From Nannocystales bacterium (GTDB lineage: Bacteria; Myxococcota_A; Polyangia; Nannocystales; Nannocystaceae), in contig JBOEGF010000010.1 of the NCBI GenBank assembly GCA_050633305.1, forward strand, positions 128,001-192,000: a stretch of 64,000 nucleotides of DNA. Direction: 5' to 3'. This document shows, in pieces, positions 5,153 through 35,240 of the stretch. The notes beneath the pieces are model-generated. The model searched no databases. It saw only the letters and a program-made list of their open reading frames with translations, and had not been told where the DNA came from. The position numbers and the translations under genes were made by a program. Position 1 is the stretch's first letter; each line of letters starts with the position of its first letter.

Positions 5153-6190
5153 GTGCTGTTGGCTTCGCTTGCCGTACTGGTGCTGGCTCCGGAAGCGGAC
5201 GCGACCGAACAGCGCTGGCCCGCCGCCTACGAATTGACGTGGGAGGCACCTCCGTCGTGTCCAGAAGCGGAGGAGCTGAGGGAGCGCATCGCCGCACTCG
5301 CCCCCAACGCTGCCGGGGGCGACGGATTGATGCACGTGGCGGCGACCGTCGTGCAGTTGTCAGACCGGTTTTCTGTTCGTATCGCCACGGACTTCGCAGG
5401 TCGGCATGATGAGCGTTCCGCCGAGTCCGAGACCTGCGGGGACTTGGTCGACGCGACCGCGCTGGTCGTGGCAGTTGCACTCGAGCCCGGGGCCGAGGCG
5501 CCGCGAGTCTCGAAGTCTCCGACGCCAATCATTCCGCGACCACGTATCCCCGAGCCCGAACCGCCGAACTCCTCGGACCAGCTTGAGGTCACTGGTGCGC
5601 GAACATCGAAGGTTGTGGAGCCGGACCGCGGTGCATCGGATTCGCCGAGTGTGACACCTCAGCCGTTTCGCTTGTCTCCGCCGGACGCGATTCTCGTTCG
5701 AATCGCTCCGCTGGTCGAGTTCGGGAGCTTGCCGTCTGTCGATGCGGGCACGGCCCTGACCGCCGGTGTTCGGTGGGCTCATTGGCGTGCGGAGGTGTTC
5801 GGGCTGTATCTGTTTCCTCAGCGGCAGACCTTCGACCGGACCCGAAGCGTGCTGCAACTCGGAGCGGCCGGGGCACGCGTGTGTCACCGACTTCTCTCCG
5901 GCCGGGTGGAGTTTCCGACCTGTCTGGGGCTCGAGGCTGGAGCCTTGCGGGCGCAGACCCAGGGGCAGCGGCCGCGAACCACCCTCAGCCTGCCTTGGCT
6001 GGCGCCATCCGTCCGCGGGGGGGTGGCGGTGGGTGGAGAGCACGTTGGCTTCTTTGCGGCAGGGGAAGTTGCTGTTTCGGTGCTGGTCCCTCGGATCTTG
6101 GTGGGTGACGAAAGTGCATTCCGCACCCGGGCGGTGTCTCTGCGGGCGTTGGCGGGGGTTGAGTTCTTTCTTCCAATAGATCGACGTTGA
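5153..6190 (+). CDS. Secreted/outer-membrane protein (Cys-pair N-domain, Pro-rich linker, beta-strand-rich C-domain)
   Basis: Signal peptide, WEAPPSCP...TCGDLVDATALVVAVAL, Pro-rich linker, amphipathic beta strands ending GVEFFL. Confidence 0.65.
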   Translation: MLLASLAVLVLAPEADATEQRWPAAYELTWEAPPSCPEAEELRERIAALAPNAAGGDGLMHVAATVVQLSDRFSVRIATDFAGRHDERSAESETCGDLVDATALVVAVALEPGAEAPRVSKSPTPIIPRPRIPEPEPPNSSDQLEVTGARTSKVVEPDRGASDSPSVTPQPFRLSPPDAILVRIAPLVEFGSLPSVDAGTALTAGVRWAHWRAEVFGLYLFPQRQTFDRTRSVLQLGAAGARVCHRLLSGRVEFPTCLGLEAGALRAQTQGQRPRTTLSLPWLAPSVRGGVAVGGEHVGFFAAGEVAVSVLVPRILVGDESAFRTRAVSLRALAGVEFFLPIDRR

Positions 6191-25998: not shown

Positions 25999-26607
25999 TC
26001 AATCTTTGCGAGTGAGAGAACGGAGCCAGCTGTCGACGTCGGCGGAGAGTCGCTCTCGTGTCGAGCCGGAGCTCGCGAACTCGTCGATGTGGCCTCGCAG
26101 GGCTTCTCGGGCCCGGGCGAGTCGGCCTCGAGCGGTGCTGGGGACGCATCCTAGGGCGTCCGCGAACTCCTGCGACTTGAGGTCTTCCCAGTAGAACAAG
26201 ACCAACGGTGTCTGCAGCTCCTCTGGGAGCGCGACCAATGCTTGAAGCAATACGCGCTGCTCATCCCGGCGGGAGACAATGGTGCTCATTCCAGTTCGCG
26301 ACGAGCCGCTCTCCGGTCCATCGAGGCGGCTCATCGCGTCGTCGTATCGGCGGCTTCGGAGGTGATTGAGCAGCACATTGCGTGCGATGCCGAACAGAAA
26401 TCCACGAAACGAACCGTCCCCGCGATATGCCGCGAGCGACGCCGCACACGCGGCGAAGGTTCGCTGCACCAGGTCCTCCGCGGCTTGTCCGGTGCGGTAC
26501 TCGAAGAACCGCAGGACGGGCTGGTAGTGCCGGCGAGCCAGCGTGTTTCCGGCACTCGCCGTCCCTTGTCGCCAGGCGGCGAACAGCTCTGCATCGGACC
26601 CTTCCAC
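25999..26607 (-). CDS. ECF sigma factor (myxobacterial type with short C-terminal extension)
   Basis: SDAELFAAWRQG, AEDLVQRTF, FLFGIARN, LVLFYWEDL, TARGRLARAR. Confidence 0.9.
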   Translation of the reverse strand: MEGSDAELFAAWRQGTASAGNTLARRHYQPVLRFFEYRTGQAAEDLVQRTFAACAASLAAYRGDGSFRGFLFGIARNVLLNHLRSRRYDDAMSRLDGPESGSSRTGMSTIVSRRDEQRVLLQALVALPEELQTPLVLFYWEDLKSQEFADALGCVPSTARGRLARAREALRGHIDEFASSGSTRERLSADVDSWLRSLTRKD

Positions 26608-26616
26608 CCGGGTTGG

Positions 26617-26626
26617 ATGGTACTGT
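26617..26626. promoter_or_regulatory. Overlapping divergent -10 boxes
   Basis: Plus-strand TGGTACTGT lies 6 nt before GTG 26633; minus-strand TACCAT lies 9 nt before GTG 26607. Confidence 0.5.
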
Positions 26627-26632
26627 ACTGAC

Positions 26633-28597
26633 GTGGCGGACGGGGTCCTCGGGGTGCGAACTTGTCTGCTGATCCTTGGGATCGCCGGCGCCGCATCGTG
26701 CGTGCGATTCGACGTGTTCGCGTGCGCCGAGGACAGTGACTGTGTCCTCAACGGGCTGAGCGGATCGTGTGCCGAAACGGGATACTGCGGCTTTCCTGAC
26801 CCCGATTGCCCCGCCGGACTTCGCTACAGCCAACATGCGCCGGGCAACTTGGCTGGCGAGTGCGTCGACGTCGCGGGAGGCTCCGAATCTGCCGGAAACA
26901 CGGGGGCGGAGACCAGCACCGGTGGTGAAACCCAGACGAGCGTCGCGACCTCCGACACGGATGCCGAAGGAAGCGGAGGCATCGAACCTTGTGTCGATGT
27001 CGACGAGGATGGGGTGGGGGTGGGGCCGGGGTGTGTCGAGCAGGACTGCGACGACGACAACCCTGCAACATTCGACGGTTGCGTCTATCTGGGCCCGAAC
27101 GGCGACGACGCGAACTCCGGTACGTCCGAGGCGCCCTGGCGAACCTACGCCCACGCGATCTCGCAGCTTTCACCGGGTGCAAGCTTGGTCGTGCTCGACG
27201 GTCGCTACCTCGAATCCGAGGTGGGTACGCCTTTCGCGGACTGTGAGGAAGGGGACGCCAACTCTGGAACGGAGCCGATGCCGATCTTCGTTCGGAGTGA
27301 GAACGACGGTCAGGTCGTGATCGACCGCGAGGGAAGAGCCCACGGACTTGGCACCGACCAGTGCAGCCACTGGCGCTTCCGCGGGTTCTCGGTCGTCTCC
27401 GTCGACAATGCCCTGGATGACACCGGAGCGTGGCGTTCTCCGGTGGCGGTTTTCGGTGCGGAAGACGTGCAGGTGAAGAGGGTGGTTGTGCACCACACCA
27501 ACCGCTTCTTCAACGAACACGCGTTCATGATCGGGGGGGCGAGCGATGTCGTGGTCGAGGACGTCGAGTTGCATGACTTCTTCCGTTCGGGATTCTCGAT
27601 CTATGCCTCCGACCGGGTCACGTGCCGTCGCTGCTACGCGCATTCGCACGAAGTCTCTGACCTCGATGCGTGCCCTGACCGCCCGGACTGCGCAGACCCC
27701 GACGACCAGGACCTTCGCGGCACAACACCGTGCCCGATGTGTTCCGCGGGTAGCCCCGACCGAGGAGACAACTCGTTCTACGTTGAGCACAGCAACGATG
27801 TTCTGCTGGAGAACTGCGTCTCCGAAGGCAGCGCACGCGGGTACCAGGTCACCGGTGGGACTGGGCAGGACGGGGCCACTGCAGGTCGCAACATCCGAAT
27901 CGTGCAGTCGCTCTCGCTCGGCGACGATCGAGGCGTGGTCGTTGGACAGAACGCCGACAACCTCGCTCCTTTGGGGATGGTGATCGAGAATGTAGTCGTG
28001 CTCAACAGTGCGTCCACGGGGCTCGAGCTTCGACAACCCGACGACCTCGTCCTGCGCGACGTCAGCGTGATCGGGTCCGGGGGAGACGGCATCCGTGTGC
28101 CGCAGGCGGACGCGCCCGACTGTACCGGCGGTGAGTGCTCGGCGACCTTCGAACGGCTGCTGATCGAGGGCGCGGGCGCCAATGGCTTCAGCCTCGAGGT
28201 CGAGCCGCAGGCTTGGTCGCTGACCCACAGCAGCATCAACGGCGCCGAAGACATCTCCTTCCCCACACTCGCTACCGATGATCCCTTCGATCAGGAGGGC
28301 AATGCTCGGAGCAACATCGAGGGCAGCGCGACTCGAGTTGGGTCCGGCGACGGTGAGTGTCGAATCTACGTTCCTAGCGACAGCAACATGTTCGACCCCT
28401 TTGGGGACGGGAACTCGGTGGGGGCGAACGTCGTGGAGTTGATGCTGGACGGTGTACCCAGTGGCGCGCCGTTGTGGTCGAGCGATGGGAAGTTTCCATG
28501 CATCGACGAGCCTGTGGAACCAGCTCAGATCGCCGGGGAACAGTGCGGCGACCTGGCGGATCGTGTTGGTTTCTCAGGCACCTGCGAAGCTCCGTAG
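26633..28597 (+). CDS. Lipoprotein with Cys module, MopE-like motif and right-handed beta-helix (pectate-lyase-like)
   Basis: AASC lipobox; DVDEDGVG...DCDDDNP; YLGPNGDDANSGTSEAPWRT (DUF1565/PL9-like cap); repeated SDVVVEDV, SDRVTCRRC and SNDVLLENC coils. Confidence 0.8.
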   Translation: MADGVLGVRTCLLILGIAGAASCVRFDVFACAEDSDCVLNGLSGSCAETGYCGFPDPDCPAGLRYSQHAPGNLAGECVDVAGGSESAGNTGAETSTGGETQTSVATSDTDAEGSGGIEPCVDVDEDGVGVGPGCVEQDCDDDNPATFDGCVYLGPNGDDANSGTSEAPWRTYAHAISQLSPGASLVVLDGRYLESEVGTPFADCEEGDANSGTEPMPIFVRSENDGQVVIDREGRAHGLGTDQCSHWRFRGFSVVSVDNALDDTGAWRSPVAVFGAEDVQVKRVVVHHTNRFFNEHAFMIGGASDVVVEDVELHDFFRSGFSIYASDRVTCRRCYAHSHEVSDLDACPDRPDCADPDDQDLRGTTPCPMCSAGSPDRGDNSFYVEHSNDVLLENCVSEGSARGYQVTGGTGQDGATAGRNIRIVQSLSLGDDRGVVVGQNADNLAPLGMVIENVVVLNSASTGLELRQPDDLVLRDVSVIGSGGDGIRVPQADAPDCTGGECSATFERLLIEGAGANGFSLEVEPQAWSLTHSSINGAEDISFPTLATDDPFDQEGNARSNIEGSATRVGSGDGECRIYVPSDSNMFDPFGDGNSVGANVVELMLDGVPSGAPLWSSDGKFPCIDEPVEPAQIAGEQCGDLADRVGFSGTCEAP

Positions 28598-28636: not shown

Positions 28637-29563
28637 TTAGGAGCTGGCGTCCGCGATAGCGCTGGCCTTCGTCGGATTGGACCGGCTACGGACGATGATC
28701 GCGGGCGAGAGGATCTCTGCTTCAGCAAATGCGTCCATCACCCGCATGTTCACATCGGTTTCGAAGAGTTTTTCGTAGCGCGTATCCAGGACGTAGGCTT
28801 TCACACGAAGCCGAACCGCCAAGTAGTTCTCCGTGATGACCTGGTTGACGAGGACGACGACCGGCTTTTCGAGGAACGTGTACCGGCTGGATACGGCGCA
28901 CTCGGCTGCAAGTTCACGAGCACGTCGCACGTCCTGGTCGGGGGCGATGTAGAAGTCCATCGTGCACTGCATGTCCAGGGCGCCGTAGTTCCCGTTGGAG
29001 GTCATGTCGCTGAGGAACTTGTTGTTGGGAATCGTGACCGTGTTGTCGCCCAGGGTCTGGAGGCGAACCGAGCGAAGCCCGATCGCGGTGATGTCCCCGT
29101 ACTCCCCACCAAAAGTGATTCGATCTCCGACCTGGAAGGGACGGTCGATCATGATCATGATCCCCGCGATGAACGACGCGACCAGGTCCTTGATCGCGAA
29201 GCCGATCGAGACGGCGACCGTGCCTCCGATCAGCGCGATGATGCTCTCGTTGAAGTCGAAGCTCAGGTAGATGACGGTGAAGCCCGTTCCGACGTAGAGT
29301 AGGAACTGGGCGAACGTCGCGACCTTCTGCAGCAGGAGTCGCCGGTTGGGGAAACGCTGGCTGAGTCCGGCGACGGACTGCTTGAGAAACCGCATCGTGA
29401 TCGCGGTTCCGATGATCACGAAGACGGAGGTGAAAACACCACTCCACTGGATCAGACGCGCGATCTGGCCCAGCGCCTCCACATCGGGTGCGGCCTCCGC
29501 CAGCAGAGGCGACGGGAGAGCGAGAGCAGTGGTGAGGCTCGAGATTGTGGTGAGCGTGATCAT
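28637..29563 (-). CDS. Small-conductance mechanosensitive channel (MscS family)
   Basis: IGFAIKDLVASFIAGI, DRPFQVGDRI, GDITAIGLRSV, VTIPN. Confidence 0.92.
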   Translation of the reverse strand: MITLTTISSLTTALALPSPLLAEAAPDVEALGQIARLIQWSGVFTSVFVIIGTAITMRFLKQSVAGLSQRFPNRRLLLQKVATFAQFLLYVGTGFTVIYLSFDFNESIIALIGGTVAVSIGFAIKDLVASFIAGIMIMIDRPFQVGDRITFGGEYGDITAIGLRSVRLQTLGDNTVTIPNNKFLSDMTSNGNYGALDMQCTMDFYIAPDQDVRRARELAAECAVSSRYTFLEKPVVVLVNQVITENYLAVRLRVKAYVLDTRYEKLFETDVNMRVMDAFAEAEILSPAIIVRSRSNPTKASAIADASS

Positions 29564-29570
29564 TGGGGCC

Positions 29571-32500
29571 TCACAGAGACGAGAGCAGGTGTTGCCGTTG
29601 AAGGACGGTGGTGATGGTGCGGTACCAGGGCCAGGTCATCCGGTACCCGCCCTGAAACGGCTCGACGTAGCCCCGCGAGCTACAGAATCGCATCGCGTCC
29701 TCGACGTCTTTCGAAGGTAGCTGCGTCGCTCGTTCGATCTCGGGCAGCAGTGCGAGTTCCAGCTGGACGACGGTTCTCAAAACGAAGAGCTGGGAGAGGC
29801 TGAGTCCTTCGATCTCCTCCGGCGGTGGCTCCTTGAACAGACGCACCACGACCCCGCCCTTCTCGTCTCGAAACAGCGACTCGCGGAAGGCGTGCATCGC
29901 GACCGCGGGATTGCCCTTCGAGTAGTCCCACAGCAACCGGTAGTAGCTGGCCTCGGTACGGTCGCCCTGGTCAGGTAGTGGCTCGCTTTGCCGGGGCACG
30001 ACGAGACCTTCAAAGCTTGGCTCGATGCCGGCGGTTTCGCATTGGCCTTTGATCAGTTCGCCGAGCGTCTCCTCGGACCAGCCTGGAAGCTGGATGATCT
30101 GCTCGAACGACACACGGTCTCCACGAGCGCGCCGGATGTACTGCCATGCCGCCGAGCCAATCGTCACGACCCAGGAGATCCCGCCGCCGACGGCACGACT
30201 GAAGTCTGTGAAGGTGTCCAGGCCGCGCAGGCCGTTCACGGCTGGGACGACGAGTCGTTGCAAGTCGTCGACCACAACGACGCAGCGACCCAGGCCTCGC
30301 ATGGCCACGATGAGCTCTTCCCCCTCGGCCGTCGGCTTGCCCGCGATCTTCGCGAAATCCCGCAGAAGGGCGTCTGCACCCTCTTCGGGGCAAGATACGC
30401 AATGAACGTCGATACCGTCGACGGACTCCTGTAGACGCCGAATGAAGACGCTCTTGCCCGCGCCTTTCTCTCCAACGATCGCCGTCAGCGTACGCCGACC
30501 CGAACGGAGTTGGTCGGCGACACGCTCGAGTTCAGGGCTCCCGACGGAGTCGAGCAGTGGGTCGGGCACGAGCTCGGGGTCGAAGTGGGGGCGGACCTTC
30601 TTTTCGATCGGCCGATAGCGCTCGTCGGCCTCGGTTGCCGCGGCCTGCTTGGCAAGCTCTCGCCGGAACAGGTACGCGAGCAGACGTCGTGTGACCTCGA
30701 GACCCGAGAGCTGGCGCATGACCCACGCACCTGAGCCCATGGCAAGCAAGTAGCTGGCTCCGGCAGCGGCCGCAGGGAAGCTGCTCAGCCCCGAACGTTG
30801 GCTCGTCACCCAACGGGTGAACGCCGTCTGCTCCGGTCGTTCCCGGACGAGTTCGAAGATGATCGGCTTCCAGCGGTGAACGAGATAGATGGCGACTGGG
30901 ATGCTGAGGAACCAACAGGTGGAGAACACCCAGCTGTACAACGCACCCCGTCCAACCATCGCAGCGGTGAGCGCGAGGACCATCCCGACCGCGATGATGT
31001 TGGCCCCGACGACGCGCAGAGAGTGGATACGCAGGGCGGAGTTGTCACGGGTGGAGGCGGAATACAGGCGCTCTCGTGCAGCAAGTGCATCGACCAGCAG
31101 CACCGCCGCGAGACCGAGCAAGACCCATCGTGCGGCGATCCACAGCAGGTTGAGACTCGGGATGCCGGCGATGTCCTCGATGACGTACAGGAGCCCCCAG
31201 ACGACCGCCAGCACCACCAGCGGTCGCCGGATCCGGCGGAGGTACCAAACGGAGGAGATCGCGAACCGGACCGCGGGGGTCATCGGCCGCCGCTCTCGAA
31301 GTCCAGCTTCGAGCTTCTCGAGGATCTCCGTGCCTCGTCGACGCCACCAGACGAAGGCGACGATCAAGGCTGCCAGCTTCAGGAGTGCGAGGACGACCTG
31401 AACGGTGGAGTTGACCAACTCGTCGAAGAACTTCGCCCGGTGTCGGGGGAGGCTGTGCACGAAGAAGCCAAGCTCGAGCGACATCTGCTTGAACTCGCGC
31501 TCCGCTTGCTCGACGCCCTCGGCCCCGAAACTCGTGACCGCGCGACGAAGGCCCGGGCTGGCGAGGTCAAGCAGTCGCAGTCGTGTGTTGTTGAGAGCGA
31601 CGAGATCGTCCTGCGTCTGGGCGGCGAGTTCCCAGCCGATCTCTTCGGAGAGGGTCGAGAGTTGCTGCTCCTTCTTCGCGACCTCACCTCGGAGCGCTGA
31701 CACGTCCCCGCGGTCGGTGTTGGAGGGGAGCTCGGAGTCCAGCGGCGTTCCGACTCCGGGAATGCCGCTCTTGTCCTCGAGGCGTTCGAGGTCGCTGGAC
31801 AGCTGCGTACGTAGGAGGTCCAAGTCCTCGCGGATCGCCCAGTACATGGGGTCTGCCTCCGTGGCGACTTCGCTCTCGAACTTCGGGGACTCGGCGAGCG
31901 TTGTGAGTCGAAGGTTCCAGTCGAGGACACGGTCGTGGTCCTCGGCGCGCTCAACTCGACGGCGTGCGAGCGCGGCTTCGAAGTTCGCTTGTGTTTCCTG
32001 AATCCCGAGCAGCCGGGCTCGCTCCTCGGCGATGATTCGTTTTGCTTCCGTGTCGGCCCGTCGTGCCGCCTCGAGGGCTTCCTCGCGCGCAGCTGCCTTC
32101 TGTGCGGCTTCGGCTTCGGCGTCGGTCAGGCTTTCCGAGGCCGCCCTCCTCGCCTGCGCCGCGCGTTCTTTCTCCGCCAAAGCTTCTTCGAGCTCGGTGG
32201 CGTCCTGGGCCGTCTCGGTTGGGGTCTCGGTCGATGCCGCCGCGGCCTCTTCAGCGCGCTTGGCCTCCGCTTCGGCCTCGACGGCAGCTTTGGCCGCCGC
32301 GACCCGCTGGGCGTGACCTCGAGCCAGCGCGTCTCGTTCGGTCGGGGTCAGTGCGAGAAAACGGCGCCGCTGGAGGTCCAGGTCGGCGCGCGCGACCTGG
32401 ACTTTCGGGTCGCCGGCCGCGGCGTGGGTCTGCAGGAGGTCGAAGCGCAGAAGCGAGTTCGGATCGAGGCCGAGCTCGAGGGTTCCGGTGAGGTAGGCGC

Positions 32501-33152
32501 GCAGACGGTCCGCATGGGTCTGTGTTGCGAGTTCATCCGCGGCGTCTTTCTCGGCCTGAATGGCGGCGGCGGCACGGCGAGTATCGTGCGCCTGGAGGCG
32601 AGCTGTTTGCGCATCGGGGGGGAGGTTGAAGAACTCGCGGAGCACGAGTTCGAGGCCGGCGTCGGGGCTCAACTCGGCAAGTGGGGTGGGGCGTCGTAAA
32701 CGACGGCGACCTCGAGCGGGCTCCGGCTCGAGGGCGCGCTCGCGAGCGTGGTCGAAGCGCTGACCTGCGCCTCCCGTCCAGCGAGGGTCCGTGAGATCGA
32801 GGATGAACAGGTCCTGGGCGCGAAGCTGTAGATCGAGGTCGCCCTCTGCCAGCGCCCGGATGCCACGAGCGCGCTCCCGGATCGTTTCATCGTCCGTCGG
32901 CGGCGGCGCTGCAGGTGTGGCTTCGGCCACCGTCTCTTCGTCGACCGGGGCGGGGTCGGCCTCGGCGGTCCCGGCATCGACTTCGGTGCCGGTCGATTCA
33001 GGCTCCGCGATGGGAGTGTGCGGTGACTGGGCGAGTACGGGGGCGGCGACGCTCGCCCAGATCCAGGCCATCAGCAGAACGAGCAACGGACGCGGAAGAG
33101 CGCGTACGTCTCGGGCGATCGCGGGGCCGTGCGAAGAAGCGCGAGAGGGCAC
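29571..33152 (-). CDS. Large membrane protein: periplasmic coiled coil, TM bundle, cytoplasmic P-loop NTPase and winged helix
   Basis: Signal peptide, Ala/Glu-rich coiled coil, about 5-6 TM helices, Walker A GEKGAGKS, Walker B VVVVDD, SKGNP motif. GTG 33152 has TACCGT 6 nt upstream. Confidence 0.8.
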   Translation of the reverse strand: MPSRASSHGPAIARDVRALPRPLLVLLMAWIWASVAAPVLAQSPHTPIAEPESTGTEVDAGTAEADPAPVDEETVAEATPAAPPPTDDETIRERARGIRALAEGDLDLQLRAQDLFILDLTDPRWTGGAGQRFDHARERALEPEPARGRRRLRRPTPLAELSPDAGLELVLREFFNLPPDAQTARLQAHDTRRAAAAIQAEKDAADELATQTHADRLRAYLTGTLELGLDPNSLLRFDLLQTHAAAGDPKVQVARADLDLQRRRFLALTPTERDALARGHAQRVAAAKAAVEAEAEAKRAEEAAAASTETPTETAQDATELEEALAEKERAAQARRAASESLTDAEAEAAQKAAAREEALEAARRADTEAKRIIAEERARLLGIQETQANFEAALARRRVERAEDHDRVLDWNLRLTTLAESPKFESEVATEADPMYWAIREDLDLLRTQLSSDLERLEDKSGIPGVGTPLDSELPSNTDRGDVSALRGEVAKKEQQLSTLSEEIGWELAAQTQDDLVALNNTRLRLLDLASPGLRRAVTSFGAEGVEQAEREFKQMSLELGFFVHSLPRHRAKFFDELVNSTVQVVLALLKLAALIVAFVWWRRRGTEILEKLEAGLRERRPMTPAVRFAISSVWYLRRIRRPLVVLAVVWGLLYVIEDIAGIPSLNLLWIAARWVLLGLAAVLLVDALAARERLYSASTRDNSALRIHSLRVVGANIIAVGMVLALTAAMVGRGALYSWVFSTCWFLSIPVAIYLVHRWKPIIFELVRERPEQTAFTRWVTSQRSGLSSFPAAAAGASYLLAMGSGAWVMRQLSGLEVTRRLLAYLFRRELAKQAAATEADERYRPIEKKVRPHFDPELVPDPLLDSVGSPELERVADQLRSGRRTLTAIVGEKGAGKSVFIRRLQESVDGIDVHCVSCPEEGADALLRDFAKIAGKPTAEGEELIVAMRGLGRCVVVVDDLQRLVVPAVNGLRGLDTFTDFSRAVGGGISWVVTIGSAAWQYIRRARGDRVSFEQIIQLPGWSEETLGELIKGQCETAGIEPSFEGLVVPRQSEPLPDQGDRTEASYYRLLWDYSKGNPAVAMHAFRESLFRDEKGGVVVRLFKEPPPEEIEGLSLSQLFVLRTVVQLELALLPEIERATQLPSKDVEDAMRFCSSRGYVEPFQGGYRMTWPWYRTITTVLQRQHLLSSL

Positions 33153-33291
33153 GCGCCAACGGTACACGACCCGGATTCAACTTGGAGCGGCTGGGGCGAA
33201 GCGCAACAGTGCGGAAATCTGACGCATCGCGGAACGACGCTCGGCCCCCCGCACGCACGTGCGGAGGGCCGAGCGTGATGCGGTCGATACC

Positions 33292-35154
33292 CTACTGGCC
33301 CTCGAGCAACTCGATGTCGCGCAGGTCGGTCAGCGACTCGTCGTCGCCGAGGTTGTCGGTGTTGCCGTAGCCGAGTCGACCGTCGGTGCCCTGTCCCCAG
33401 CATCGGACTCGGCCGGCTTCGGTGATGGCACAGGTGTGGTTACCGTCGGCTGCGATGGAGCGCACGGTGGTGTCCAGCGGTACGACGCCAGCATCCGCGG
33501 GGTCTTCGTCGTCGCCGATGGTGTCGCCGTTGCCGTATCCGAGCTGTCCACTGGAGCCGAAGCCCCAGCACTGGACCGTACCGTCGTCGAGCAGGGCGCA
33601 GGTGTGGGCGAAGCCTGCCACAACCTGGCGGGCCGGTCCGTCGAGTTCGACGGTTCCGGCGTCGGCCGGCGAGTTGTTGAAGCCGACGTACGCGCTGTTT
33701 CCGTATCCCAGCCGGCCGTCATTGCCTCGGCCCCAACACTGGACGGAGCCATCCTCGAGCACGGCGCAGCTGTGGAGCCAGCCCAGCGCGATGTCGGTCG
33801 CGAAGTCTGACAGGACCACATCGCCGGCCGTCGCGGGCGTCTCGTCGTCGCCGATCGTGACGTTGCCGTTGCCGTGTCCCAGGGCGCCGTTGCCCTGGCT
33901 GCCCCAGCAGCGGACCGTGCCCAGGCTGGTGCGCGTGCAGGTGTGGGCCTGGCCGGCTGCGATCTGGACCACCGTGGCGCCCACGTCCGTGACCGGGCTT
34001 GAAGACAGGGCTTCGTTGTCACCGATGTTGGTCGTCTGCCCCACGATACCCAGCTTGCCGGTGGTTGCTTGGCCCCAGCACTTCACGTCTCCCGAGTCGA
34101 GGGCCGCACACGAGTGGAATGCTCCGCCGCCGCTTCCGATGGTCGCGATCGGGGAGCCGAGGTCGATGGCGTCGACGCTGGTAATCGCCTCGTTGTCCCC
34201 GAGGGGCACAGTGTTTCCGTAGCCGATCTGTCCGACGCTGGCGGCTCCAAAGCACCGCGCGGTGCCGTCGTTGAGGGCGACGCAGGTGTGGGAGACGCCC
34301 GCGACCACCGACTCGGCGACGGCGCCCTCTCCCAGGTTGACGAATCCGATGTCGGCCGGCGTCTCGTCGTCTCCGATGTCGTCGGTGTTGCCGTAGCCCA
34401 GCCGGCCGCTCGCTGCGTTGCCCCAGCACTTGATGGAGCCGCTGTCGAAGCGGGCGCAGGTGAAGTCGCCCCCGAGTGCAAGTTCGACCGCCTCGTGGGC
34501 GGAGCAGTTGTTGTGGCACGCGTCGGTGTCGTCGCCGTTGCCGTCATCGCAGGTCTCGACGCCCAGCTGGGTGAACCCATCTCCGCAGCTGGCTGCGAGA
34601 CACGTGACACACCCATCGGTCGGGTCGCTGTTGCCGTCATCGCAGGACTCATTGAGCGCGTGCAGGAAACCATCACCGCAGACGTTGACGGTGCAGCTGG
34701 CGGTGCAGTCCGAGGTGTCGTCGTTCAGCAGGCCGTCGTCGCACTCTTCGCCGTCGTCCATCGTGCCATCTCCGCAGAATGCTGCTTGGGCGCCGGTCGT
34801 AGACTCGCCACCTGAGATCTCGGAACCCGTGGAGCTGCTGCCAGCGTCGCCAGTGCTGCTGCTGCCCCCGGTGTCGCCGCCGGAGCTGCTGCTGCTGCCG
34901 TCGGTGCCGCCGCCGGAGCTGCTGCCGCCATCGGTGCTGCTTGATCCCTCGGCGCTCGTGCTGCTTGTGGGTCCGCTGTCCGTCCCGCCGGTTGTCGTGG
35001 GGTCACTTGTCGTCGGGCCCGCCGTGGGGTCCGTCGTCGTAGGACCGTCGGCAGAGGTACTGCCTTCGTCGGAAGGGGATGCGGTGTCGTCGCCGCAACC
35101 ACCAAAGGCTCCGACTGCAAAGACCGCGACCAAGGCACGAGACGTCATCGTCAT
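33292..35154 (-). CDS. Lipoprotein with Myxococcus Cys-rich (DUF4215) repeats and RCC1-like beta-propeller
   Basis: GGCGDD; three CGDG...ExCDDG repeats; seven HTC...CWGxxxxGxLGYGN...IGDDE repeats. Confidence 0.9.
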   Translation of the reverse strand: MTMTSRALVAVFAVGAFGGCGDDTASPSDEGSTSADGPTTTDPTAGPTTSDPTTTGGTDSGPTSSTSAEGSSSTDGGSSSGGGTDGSSSSSGGDTGGSSSTGDAGSSSTGSEISGGESTTGAQAAFCGDGTMDDGEECDDGLLNDDTSDCTASCTVNVCGDGFLHALNESCDDGNSDPTDGCVTCLAASCGDGFTQLGVETCDDGNGDDTDACHNNCSAHEAVELALGGDFTCARFDSGSIKCWGNAASGRLGYGNTDDIGDDETPADIGFVNLGEGAVAESVVAGVSHTCVALNDGTARCFGAASVGQIGYGNTVPLGDNEAITSVDAIDLGSPIATIGSGGGAFHSCAALDSGDVKCWGQATTGKLGIVGQTTNIGDNEALSSSPVTDVGATVVQIAAGQAHTCTRTSLGTVRCWGSQGNGALGHGNGNVTIGDDETPATAGDVVLSDFATDIALGWLHSCAVLEDGSVQCWGRGNDGRLGYGNSAYVGFNNSPADAGTVELDGPARQVVAGFAHTCALLDDGTVQCWGFGSSGQLGYGNGDTIGDDEDPADAGVVPLDTTVRSIAADGNHTCAITEAGRVRCWGQGTDGRLGYGNTDNLGDDESLTDLRDIELLEGQ

Positions 35155-35240
35155 GCCCCACGGTTCGGCTGAATCCGTTCGGCTTTGACCCCCGTTCCCT
35201 ATTTGTTCCACACCGCGTCGCAAGCGCGCCGCCTCGGTCC

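Follow-up and report, generated by a model that had tools for sequence, protein, structure and literature searches.

Does a large membrane protein with an ATPase fold, encoded directly ahead of a small mechanosensitive channel gene, form part of that channel? The question is raised by two adjoining genes in a window of 64,000 nucleotides (nt), the whole stretch of DNA analysed here, from a Nannocystales bacterium (GenBank assembly GCA_050633305.1, contig JBOEGF010000010.1, positions 128,001 to 192,000). Both genes are on the minus strand. The upstream open reading frame (ORF), at 29571..33167, has 1198 codons from its first GTG and encodes a large partner protein with a predicted signal peptide, a periplasmic helical domain, a bundle of five transmembrane (TM) helices, an AAA+/STAND-like ATPase, a lid and a winged helix. 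A spacer of 7 nt (29564..29570) separates its stop codon from the start of a gene for a 308-aa channel of the MscS family (28637..29563). A Shine-Dalgarno-like GAGG ahead of the MscS gene overlaps the stop codon of the large ORF, a position compatible with translational coupling. A sequence-only reading had described this anatomy, including the coiled coil, the Walker A and B motifs and a GNP motif, and it was confirmed.

The pair is genuine, an as yet undescribed variant among MscS-like channel systems. No description of an ATPase-module/MscS pair was found in searches of a library that lacks most subscription papers, and the supplements of STAND surveys, PMC13581612 for example, might list the clade in their tables; the main text of that survey contains the word "mechanosensitive" 0 times. 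In our preferred reading, to which we give a probability of about 0.52, the products of both genes would assemble into a single heteromeric mechanosensitive channel, resembling an MscK that has been split in two and extended by an ATPase-fold module, and nucleotide binding would tune its gating without being required across the family.

Coupling of the ATPase module to the MscS gene

The constant partner of MscS is the module made up of ATPase, lid and winged helix, not the MscK-like N-terminal half of the large protein. We pooled 103 unique module-bearing places, among them the window locus and three paralogous loci from the window genome; 102 of these had at least 900 nt of downstream sequence. 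A channel was called when an MscS domain started no more than 700 nt downstream of the module, and loci L010 and L139 were cut by contig ends. The sets include related genomes, which are not independent, and all counts of loci are descriptive only. An MscS gene was located directly downstream in 99 of the 102 places, comprising 64 of 65 modules not fused to a transporter, 28 of 30 fused to a Na+/H+-exchanger-type (CPA) domain and 7 of 7 fused to an APC/SLC12 cation-chloride-cotransporter (CCC) domain. Of the three misses, L138 had a Pfam-confirmed channel slightly further on, L130 was frameshifted with a weak partial match, and L056 had no channel gene. The channel profile was built from the loci themselves, hence the weaker channel calls were rechecked by Pfam, and 25 of 25 matched PF00924.

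The same coupling was seen from the channel side. A metagenome scan with the channel alignment gave 471 confirmed stretches, and among the best 80 the module lay upstream in 62 of 62 loci with more than 400 nt of upstream sequence and in 8 of 18 with less. Lack of conservation had been named beforehand as evidence that would speak against a functional pair; the coupling of module and channel genes is near-absolute in both directions. Their adjacency is far beyond chance, the genes flanking the pair otherwise vary freely, and other MscS genes of the window genome have no module.

The C-terminal 678 residues of the large protein match 1587 clusters (clustered at 50% identity), and its named close homologues are from Myxococcota. 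In a scan of named genomes the channel gene followed the module directly in 13 of 14 loci, the 14th being truncated within the ATPase. Among 151 genomes of the same phylum, 49 matched the single-protein query; with a profile, 53 matched at best E <1e-22, all remaining matches being weaker than 1e-11. In another phylum, that of a Gammaproteobacteria record, 8 of 251 genomes (seed genome included) had the module, and the channel gene followed in 8 of 8. The cultured carriers on record are Novosphingobium, Caulobacter, Enhygromyxa and Pendulispora, and Novosphingobium and Caulobacter plasmids bear the pair. Distances in the module and channel trees were correlated (rho 0.84, n=99, the best of 200 permutations giving 0.14; 0.77 in the class of the window pair, n=63), which shows co-inheritance, not contact. 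In a mean-field coupling analysis of 108 paired sequences (effective number 76), re-pairing of neighbours gave top inter-protein scores at least as high.

The coupling extends over four architectures, several phyla and one archaeon. In type I, to which the window protein belongs, the module stands behind a periplasmic and TM region; long forms in which no transporter domain was seen were assigned to it by default, and some distant members miss the periplasmic and TM profiles. Types II and III are the CPA and CCC fusions. Type IV is a free-standing module without a P-loop, directly upstream of MscS, found on a haloarchaeal plasmid, in a Halomonas record and in two further genomes (L149:4952-6753; L150; L237; L238). 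Three of the types occur in the window genome itself, type I twice and types II and III once each. The second type I pair (L015:9389-14495, contig C14) is about 40% and 60% identical to the large and MscS proteins of the window, respectively. The type II protein (1404 aa; L122:3519-7733, contig C5) and the type III protein (1729 aa; L058:5662-10851, contig C21) are each followed by a divergent MscS-like gene.

Several further features were noted at these loci. At L056 a tandem repeat of about 25 nt (5300-5720) directly follows the module gene, at the expected channel position. Another, unrelated MscS gene follows the L015 pair on the opposite strand, and a second, unrelated MscS gene often adjoins the pair (L009, L011, L065, L102, L142, L160, L167, L171, L173, L175, L179, L214, L228). 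CPA-fused genes are preceded by a gene for a membrane protein of about 450 aa with no Pfam match (L055:10350-11756; L056:10270-11613; L054:1604-2965); in L054 a further gene, whose product has a TrkA-like N-terminus by inspection, lies upstream.

The channel and the N-terminal half of its partner

The small protein matched PF00924, the middle beta-domain, at E 8.9e-19 (67.8 bits against a cut-off of 20.2) and has a layout of the three-TM type. Its Gly/Ala-rich pore-lining helix (residues 110-128; 29180..29236) carries V118 and F122, which align with V921 and F925, the gate residues of MscK (PMC9653487). The pore helix of type I channels is canonical (G121 in 63/63, D126 in 63/63, F122 in 59/63), and these channels are more conserved than their partner modules, with a mean identity of 51% versus 28%. 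The channels adjoining the module form a distinct subfamily: in a tree of a 57-row subset, type I channels fell on one side of a branch with support 99 and type II/III channels on another (97), apart from unlinked MscS and MscK/MscM (78). Judged by its residues, the window pair is the version in which both pore and Walker motifs are intact.

To compare the N-terminal half of the large protein with MscK, 131 type I rows were aligned by HHalign to five MscK/MscM sequences. A single collinear match was obtained between residues 484-743 (30939..31718) and residues 374-664 of E. coli MscK, that is, the membrane-proximal periplasmic helices and the first four TM helices (probability 81%, pairwise E 1.2e-5, 255 columns). 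Reversed profiles and unrelated membrane profiles stayed below 1%. The score of 53.9 compares with a best of 26.4 in 25 block shuffles and 33.2 in 25 local shuffles, in which the hydropathy pattern was kept; with MscK-only rows the probability was 44%. In MscK the membrane-proximal periplasmic bundle is a gating ring (PMC9653487), and the matched segment spans this ring together with the outer TM helices. In the ESM Atlas, the nearest clusters to residues 330-845 were one unlabelled and two MscS_TM (PF12794) clusters at ranks 2 and 3, with 0.81, which serves as a lead only. The alignment suggests that residues 484-743 are probably homologous to MscK. A fold search with the full-length model as query returned matches to the ATPase module only, MscK not being among them, and PF12794 was not found in any of the 20 relatives searched, the window genome included. 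The idea of a split MscK-like system, put forward from the sequence alone, thus has moderate support, in that the HHalign match and the Atlas lead stand for it and the Pfam and profile searches came out negative.

The resemblance to E. coli MscK (KefA) and MscM (YjeP) lies in the signal peptide, the large periplasmic helical domain, the extra TM helices before an MscS core, the aligned segment and the corresponding gate residues. Unlike these single polypeptides, the sensor half and the pore are here encoded by two ORFs, with a stop codon and a 7-nt gap between them, and they are split in relatives too. The partner has five TM helices in place of the eight extra helices in MscK/MscM, its cytoplasmic ATPase-winged-helix module has no counterpart in MscK or MscM, PF12794 is unmatched, and the pore falls into another group within MscS.

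The remaining anatomy of the large protein was derived from hydropathy, alignments and models. A hydrophobic stretch at residues 23-48 ends in an A-x-A site and was also seen in homologue N-termini by hydropathy and inspection; the predicted signal peptide core and cleavage site occupy residues 27-46 (33030..33089). They are followed by a Pro/Ala/Glu-rich linker of low confidence (residues 47-91, 32895..33029; pLDDT <50 at 41-86) and by the helical, coiled-coil region (residues 92-586, 31410..32894), whose equivalent is much shorter in relatives of about 780 aa. In the N-terminal periplasmic part (32283-32894) alignment by eye shows two similar blocks, with one in Polyangiaceae-like relatives; the pairwise score for an internal repeat in residues 92-295 fell short of significance (E 0.11). 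The five predicted TM helices (residues 588-761, 30885..31406) correspond to hydrophobic segments at 588-606, 646-670, 674-692, 719-737 and 742-760. A cleaved signal and an odd number of TM helices would place the long helices outside and the ATPase inside, so the former are presumably periplasmic and the latter cytoplasmic. Membrane-adjacent helices, including a conserved basic/aromatic helix, join the TM bundle to the ATPase (residues 762-846, 30630..30884). The full-length AlphaFold2 model, built from 33 sequences (mean pLDDT 83, pTM 0.54), shows a low-confidence N-terminus, long helices at 92-586, a helical bundle at 588-846 and, from residue 860, an alpha/beta domain, lid and winged helix.

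Fold and catalytic residues of the module

The only Pfam domain above cut-off in the large protein was AAA_22 (residues 891-986, E 4.8e-10), and neither protein matched an NCBIfam family above cut-off. The module carries an intact Walker A (residues 899-906, 30450..30473), a Walker B with two acidic residues (963-968, 30264..30281), an Arg-rich motif (1013-1018, 30114..30131) that aligns with the position of the Cdc6 arginine-finger segment and may have the same role, a GNP motif in the lid (1085-1087, 29907..29915) followed by Ala at the sensor-2 position, and a C-terminal winged helix (1117-1198, 29574..29819). Modelled alone, the module reached a pLDDT of 93.8 with the winged helix present at 1117-1198; in relatives the winged helix gave MarR/TrmB-type Pfam matches.

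As shown by structural search, the best matches of the module were Orc1/Cdc6 2qby_A (Z 15.5, rmsd 8.0, 286 aligned), Cdc6 7jgr_G (Z 15.2, rmsd 3.4, 239 aligned) and TnsC 9g0f_A (Z 14.7), with 11-18% identity to Orc1/Cdc6/TnsC-type AAA+ proteins. The STAND proteins ZAR1 6j5t_G (Z 12.9), PAB2304 2qen_A (Z 12.3) and Avs3 8dgc_A (Z 11.5) followed, and the two groups, at Z 13.5-15.5 and Z 11.3-12.9, formed one continuous band. With Orc1/Cdc6 and TnsC-type AAA+ proteins the module shares the AAA+ core, lid and winged helix and the Arg-rich segment at the finger position; R1018 lies within one column of the residue that we take to be the Cdc6 arginine finger. It differs from them in being membrane-anchored and tied to a channel gene rather than to origins or transposons, which argues against origin DNA binding, and from Orc1/Cdc6 in that a sensor-2 Arg is mostly absent.

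With STAND nucleoside triphosphatases (NTPases) such as ZAR1, Avs and the archaeal PAB2304/SSO1545 type, the module shares the P-loop core, GxP and a winged helix after a helical domain. It departs from them in lacking a sensor-1 Arg, a C-terminal TPR/WD40/LRR sensor and an effector enzyme, and in having no defence context. The sensor-1 arginine of hhhT[ST]R is a motif of the AP-ATPase and NACHT clades of STAND; archaeal-type STANDs also lack it and hence remain compatible with the module. In the window protein the end of strand 4 reads T-I-G-S; columns 1002-1005 are variable, with Arg at 1005 in 27 of 302 type I modules. Neither a C-terminal sensor repeat, the protein stopping at the winged helix in Pfam and in the model, nor an N-terminal effector was found in the large protein, the layout of Avs and NLR proteins being a C-terminal repeat sensor and an N-terminal effector (PMC13001434). 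The module would therefore be Orc1/Cdc6- or STAND-like rather than an assigned member of either class, and the fit of its model to Orc1/Cdc6-type AAA+ is no worse than that to STAND. Of the proposed STAND assignment, GxP and the winged helix stand; the best folds, the candidate arginine-finger motif and the missing sensor-1 Arg and sensor repeat do not favour it.

Motif conservation was counted over 383 unique modules, 302 of type I, which lean to close relatives, 30 of type II and 48 of type III, with 3 unclassified modules excluded. Walker A GK[ST] was kept in 279/302, 4/30 and 45/48, respectively, and the full GK[ST] and D[DE] combination in 238 of the 302 type I modules. Within type I, GxP is nearly invariant (G1085 in 301/302, P1087 in 294/302), the Arg-rich motif is common (R1013 in 265/302, R1015 in 268/302, R1018 in 208/302), and a sensor-2 Arg is present in 32/302, the window protein having Ala1088. 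Lys-to-Thr replacement in Walker A defines a clade of type I proteins of about 780 aa, mostly from low-GC genomes and with a short periplasmic part (L185, L189, L192, L196, L201, L204, L217, L233-L235). Catalysis appears to have been lost several times, in CPA-fused and free-standing forms and in this one short-periplasm clade, with the MscS link unbroken. The loss of catalytic residues while the link stays suggests that nucleotide tunes rather than powers gating, and the original idea of a nucleotide switch that gates the channel is weakened to that extent.

A proposed channel complex and its alternatives

In the preferred reading the small gene would form a normal MscS heptameric pore and cage, and the large protein would contribute in trans a helical bundle in the periplasm and outer TM helices, both MscK-like, so that the parts played in MscK by ring and outer helices would fall to its periplasmic helices and TM bundle. 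The Orc1/Cdc6-like module would dock on the cytoplasmic face of the channel, probably in several copies around the cage, its basic job being docking and coupling. Modules of the window branch would in addition bind nucleotide and probably hydrolyse it, thereby tuning the tension threshold, closing or fenestration opening according to the energy state of the cell, in a setting of ion and turgor homeostasis. Physical binding of the large protein to MscS, its stoichiometry, its effect on gating and its physiological role are what we infer here. MscS-type channels serve as the model of a pore gated by nothing but lipid force. According to the main text of a 2026 review, MscS activation needs no accessory proteins, and the terms "ATP" and "auxiliary" do not occur in that text (PMC13591265). 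The same source gives a precedent for cage-side regulation in MscM, where TM7 touches the cage and opens fenestrations, and describes bCNG channels, in which an MscS-like pore is tied to a cytoplasmic nucleotide-binding module; there the module is a fused cyclic-nucleotide-binding domain, here it has the fold of a P-loop ATPase and sits on a membrane protein of its own. KAP/YobI NTPases (PifA, Tmn) are likewise membrane-anchored P-loop NTPases able to affect ion flux (PMC13001434). YobI and Tmn have TM helices within the P-loop domain and a pore of their own, whereas in the window protein all TM helices precede an uninterrupted ATPase (no hydrophobic segment past residue 760 reaches threshold, and the model shows no insertion) and a separate channel gene comes next.

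Several observations weigh against a heteromeric, nucleotide-tuned, MscK-like channel. The HHalign match is moderate, with the TM part alone giving 9.9% and MscM-only rows 0.9% against a template of five sequences; neither PF12794 on the large protein nor hmmsearch of N-terminal profiles against single E. coli MscK and MscM sequences gave anything significant; and ESM Atlas scores of 0.81 are of lead level only. The window protein itself has Gly at sensor-1 and Ala1088 at sensor-2. In 10 of 49 long forms from later loci, Lys-to-Thr in Walker A is accompanied by Asp-to-Asn, with the Arg motif and GNP retained, free-standing modules lack the P-loop, and just 4 of 30 CPA fusions have GK[ST]. Locus L056 lacks a channel gene. 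Gene coupling and tree congruence are also expected from co-regulation and shared descent. Finally, channels beside CPA and CCC fusions have bulky, variable, non-canonical pore-helix residues, so that the family-wide function may not be tension gating.

It is tentatively possible, and on balance doubtful, that the module is a general docking adaptor that rings MscS heptameric cages and plugs in interchangeable membrane domains, an MscK-like sensor here, CPA or CCC transporters elsewhere and none in free-standing forms. In the window branch ATP and ADP would then switch the ring and set the opening threshold, making the pair a nucleotide-gated mechanosensitive channel, a bacterial analogue of metabolic gating of the K-ATP type. 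The fusions to CPA and CCC transporters, their partners' degenerate pore helices, the MarR/TrmB-like matches of the winged helix in relatives and nearest folds that are DNA-binding initiators would also suit a signal running the other way, with the MscS oligomer as a tension-sensing scaffold whose state the module relays to an output, the fused transporter in those forms and another protein or DNA here. We think this rather unlikely for the window pair, since no output domain is evident in type I, the pore is canonical and conserved well above the module, and no regulated gene was found conserved near type I pairs in our neighbour survey. That survey covered 146 genes, at most two on each side of the pair in 41 type I loci, from heuristic gene calls with long ones trimmed to 450 aa. 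Fourteen of the 146 were ion channels or transporters (six other MscS, three Na+/H+ exchangers, two CorA, Kir, CrcB and Amt), a count without a background rate. Together with the CPA and CCC fusions they point to ion handling. Recurring ion-transport genes, and the fact that operon order can persist by itself, would also allow the two genes to belong merely to an osmotic or ion regulon, their products acting separately. Against such co-transcription, which is unlikely, stand the strict order and adjacency over four architectures, several phyla and an archaeon, a dedicated channel subfamily never without the module in the 62 testable loci among the best 80, and the module-free MscS genes of the same genome.

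The AAA+ fold and the Walker and Arg-rich finger-like motifs kept in most of the branch would accord with an ATP-driven machine: oligomers of the module would use ATP hydrolysis either on the channel itself, assembling it, remodelling it or forcing it open, or to power the export of solutes through it. The repeated loss of the catalytic Lys from intact gene pairs and the scarcity of a sensor-2 Arg make such a machine quite unlikely. The sequence-only reading had also considered a defence-type pore, and an anti-phage system in which a STAND-like sensor opens the MscS pore and kills or stalls the infected cell could draw on GxP, the winged helix, structural neighbours that include ZAR1, Avs3 and AVAST5, the existence of membrane P-loop defence proteins such as Tmn (PMC13001434), and one plasmid copy of the pair near conjugation genes, beside a helicase gene. 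It is nevertheless very improbable. Neither protein significantly matched PADLOC 2.0 (best E 0.018 and 0.031), and no phage record matched the pair. No defence-island context was found among the surveyed neighbours, of which 11 matched PADLOC, 10 of these being named by Pfam as kinases, ABC ATPases, OmpA or sigma-54 activators, generic domains. Unlike patchy defence genes, the module is present in all 6 genomes compared from the same genus and all 11 from the same family; sensor repeats are missing and catalytically dead forms are common. The claim of a defence pore is not upheld.

If the heteromeric channel is real, a dedicated ATPase-fold partner would add a subunit-level layer of control and couple the release of turgor to the cell's energy state or to ion exchangers, in a channel subfamily that spans myxobacteria, proteobacteria and a haloarchaeon and was never seen without its partner in testable loci. 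A natural two-piece MscK would let one ask whether a pore can be gated in trans by a ring in the periplasm and an outer TM bundle. The Lys-to-Thr clade is a natural, catalytically dead comparison set.

Three start codons are candidates for the large ORF: GTG at 33167, GTG at 33152, used by the sequence-only reading and the ESM Atlas record, and ATG at 33071, the database gene call (1166 aa). A sigma-70 promoter scan gave 0 sites, and terminator-like sites were at chance level. Among public sequencing runs no RNA run was listed as containing the sequence, and one DNA run shared 0.32 of its words. Three relatives share a short conserved sequence at 33155-33175, just ahead of GTG 33152, that by inspection resembles an extended -10 element, which the promoter scan did not pick up; an mRNA from GTG 33152 would then be leaderless. 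The pair is flanked by a beta-helix protein gene (26543-28597) that converges on the channel gene and, upstream, by a gene for an RCC1-repeat/DUF4215 protein (33292-35223), which is kept only in the close relatives L001, L151 and L153.

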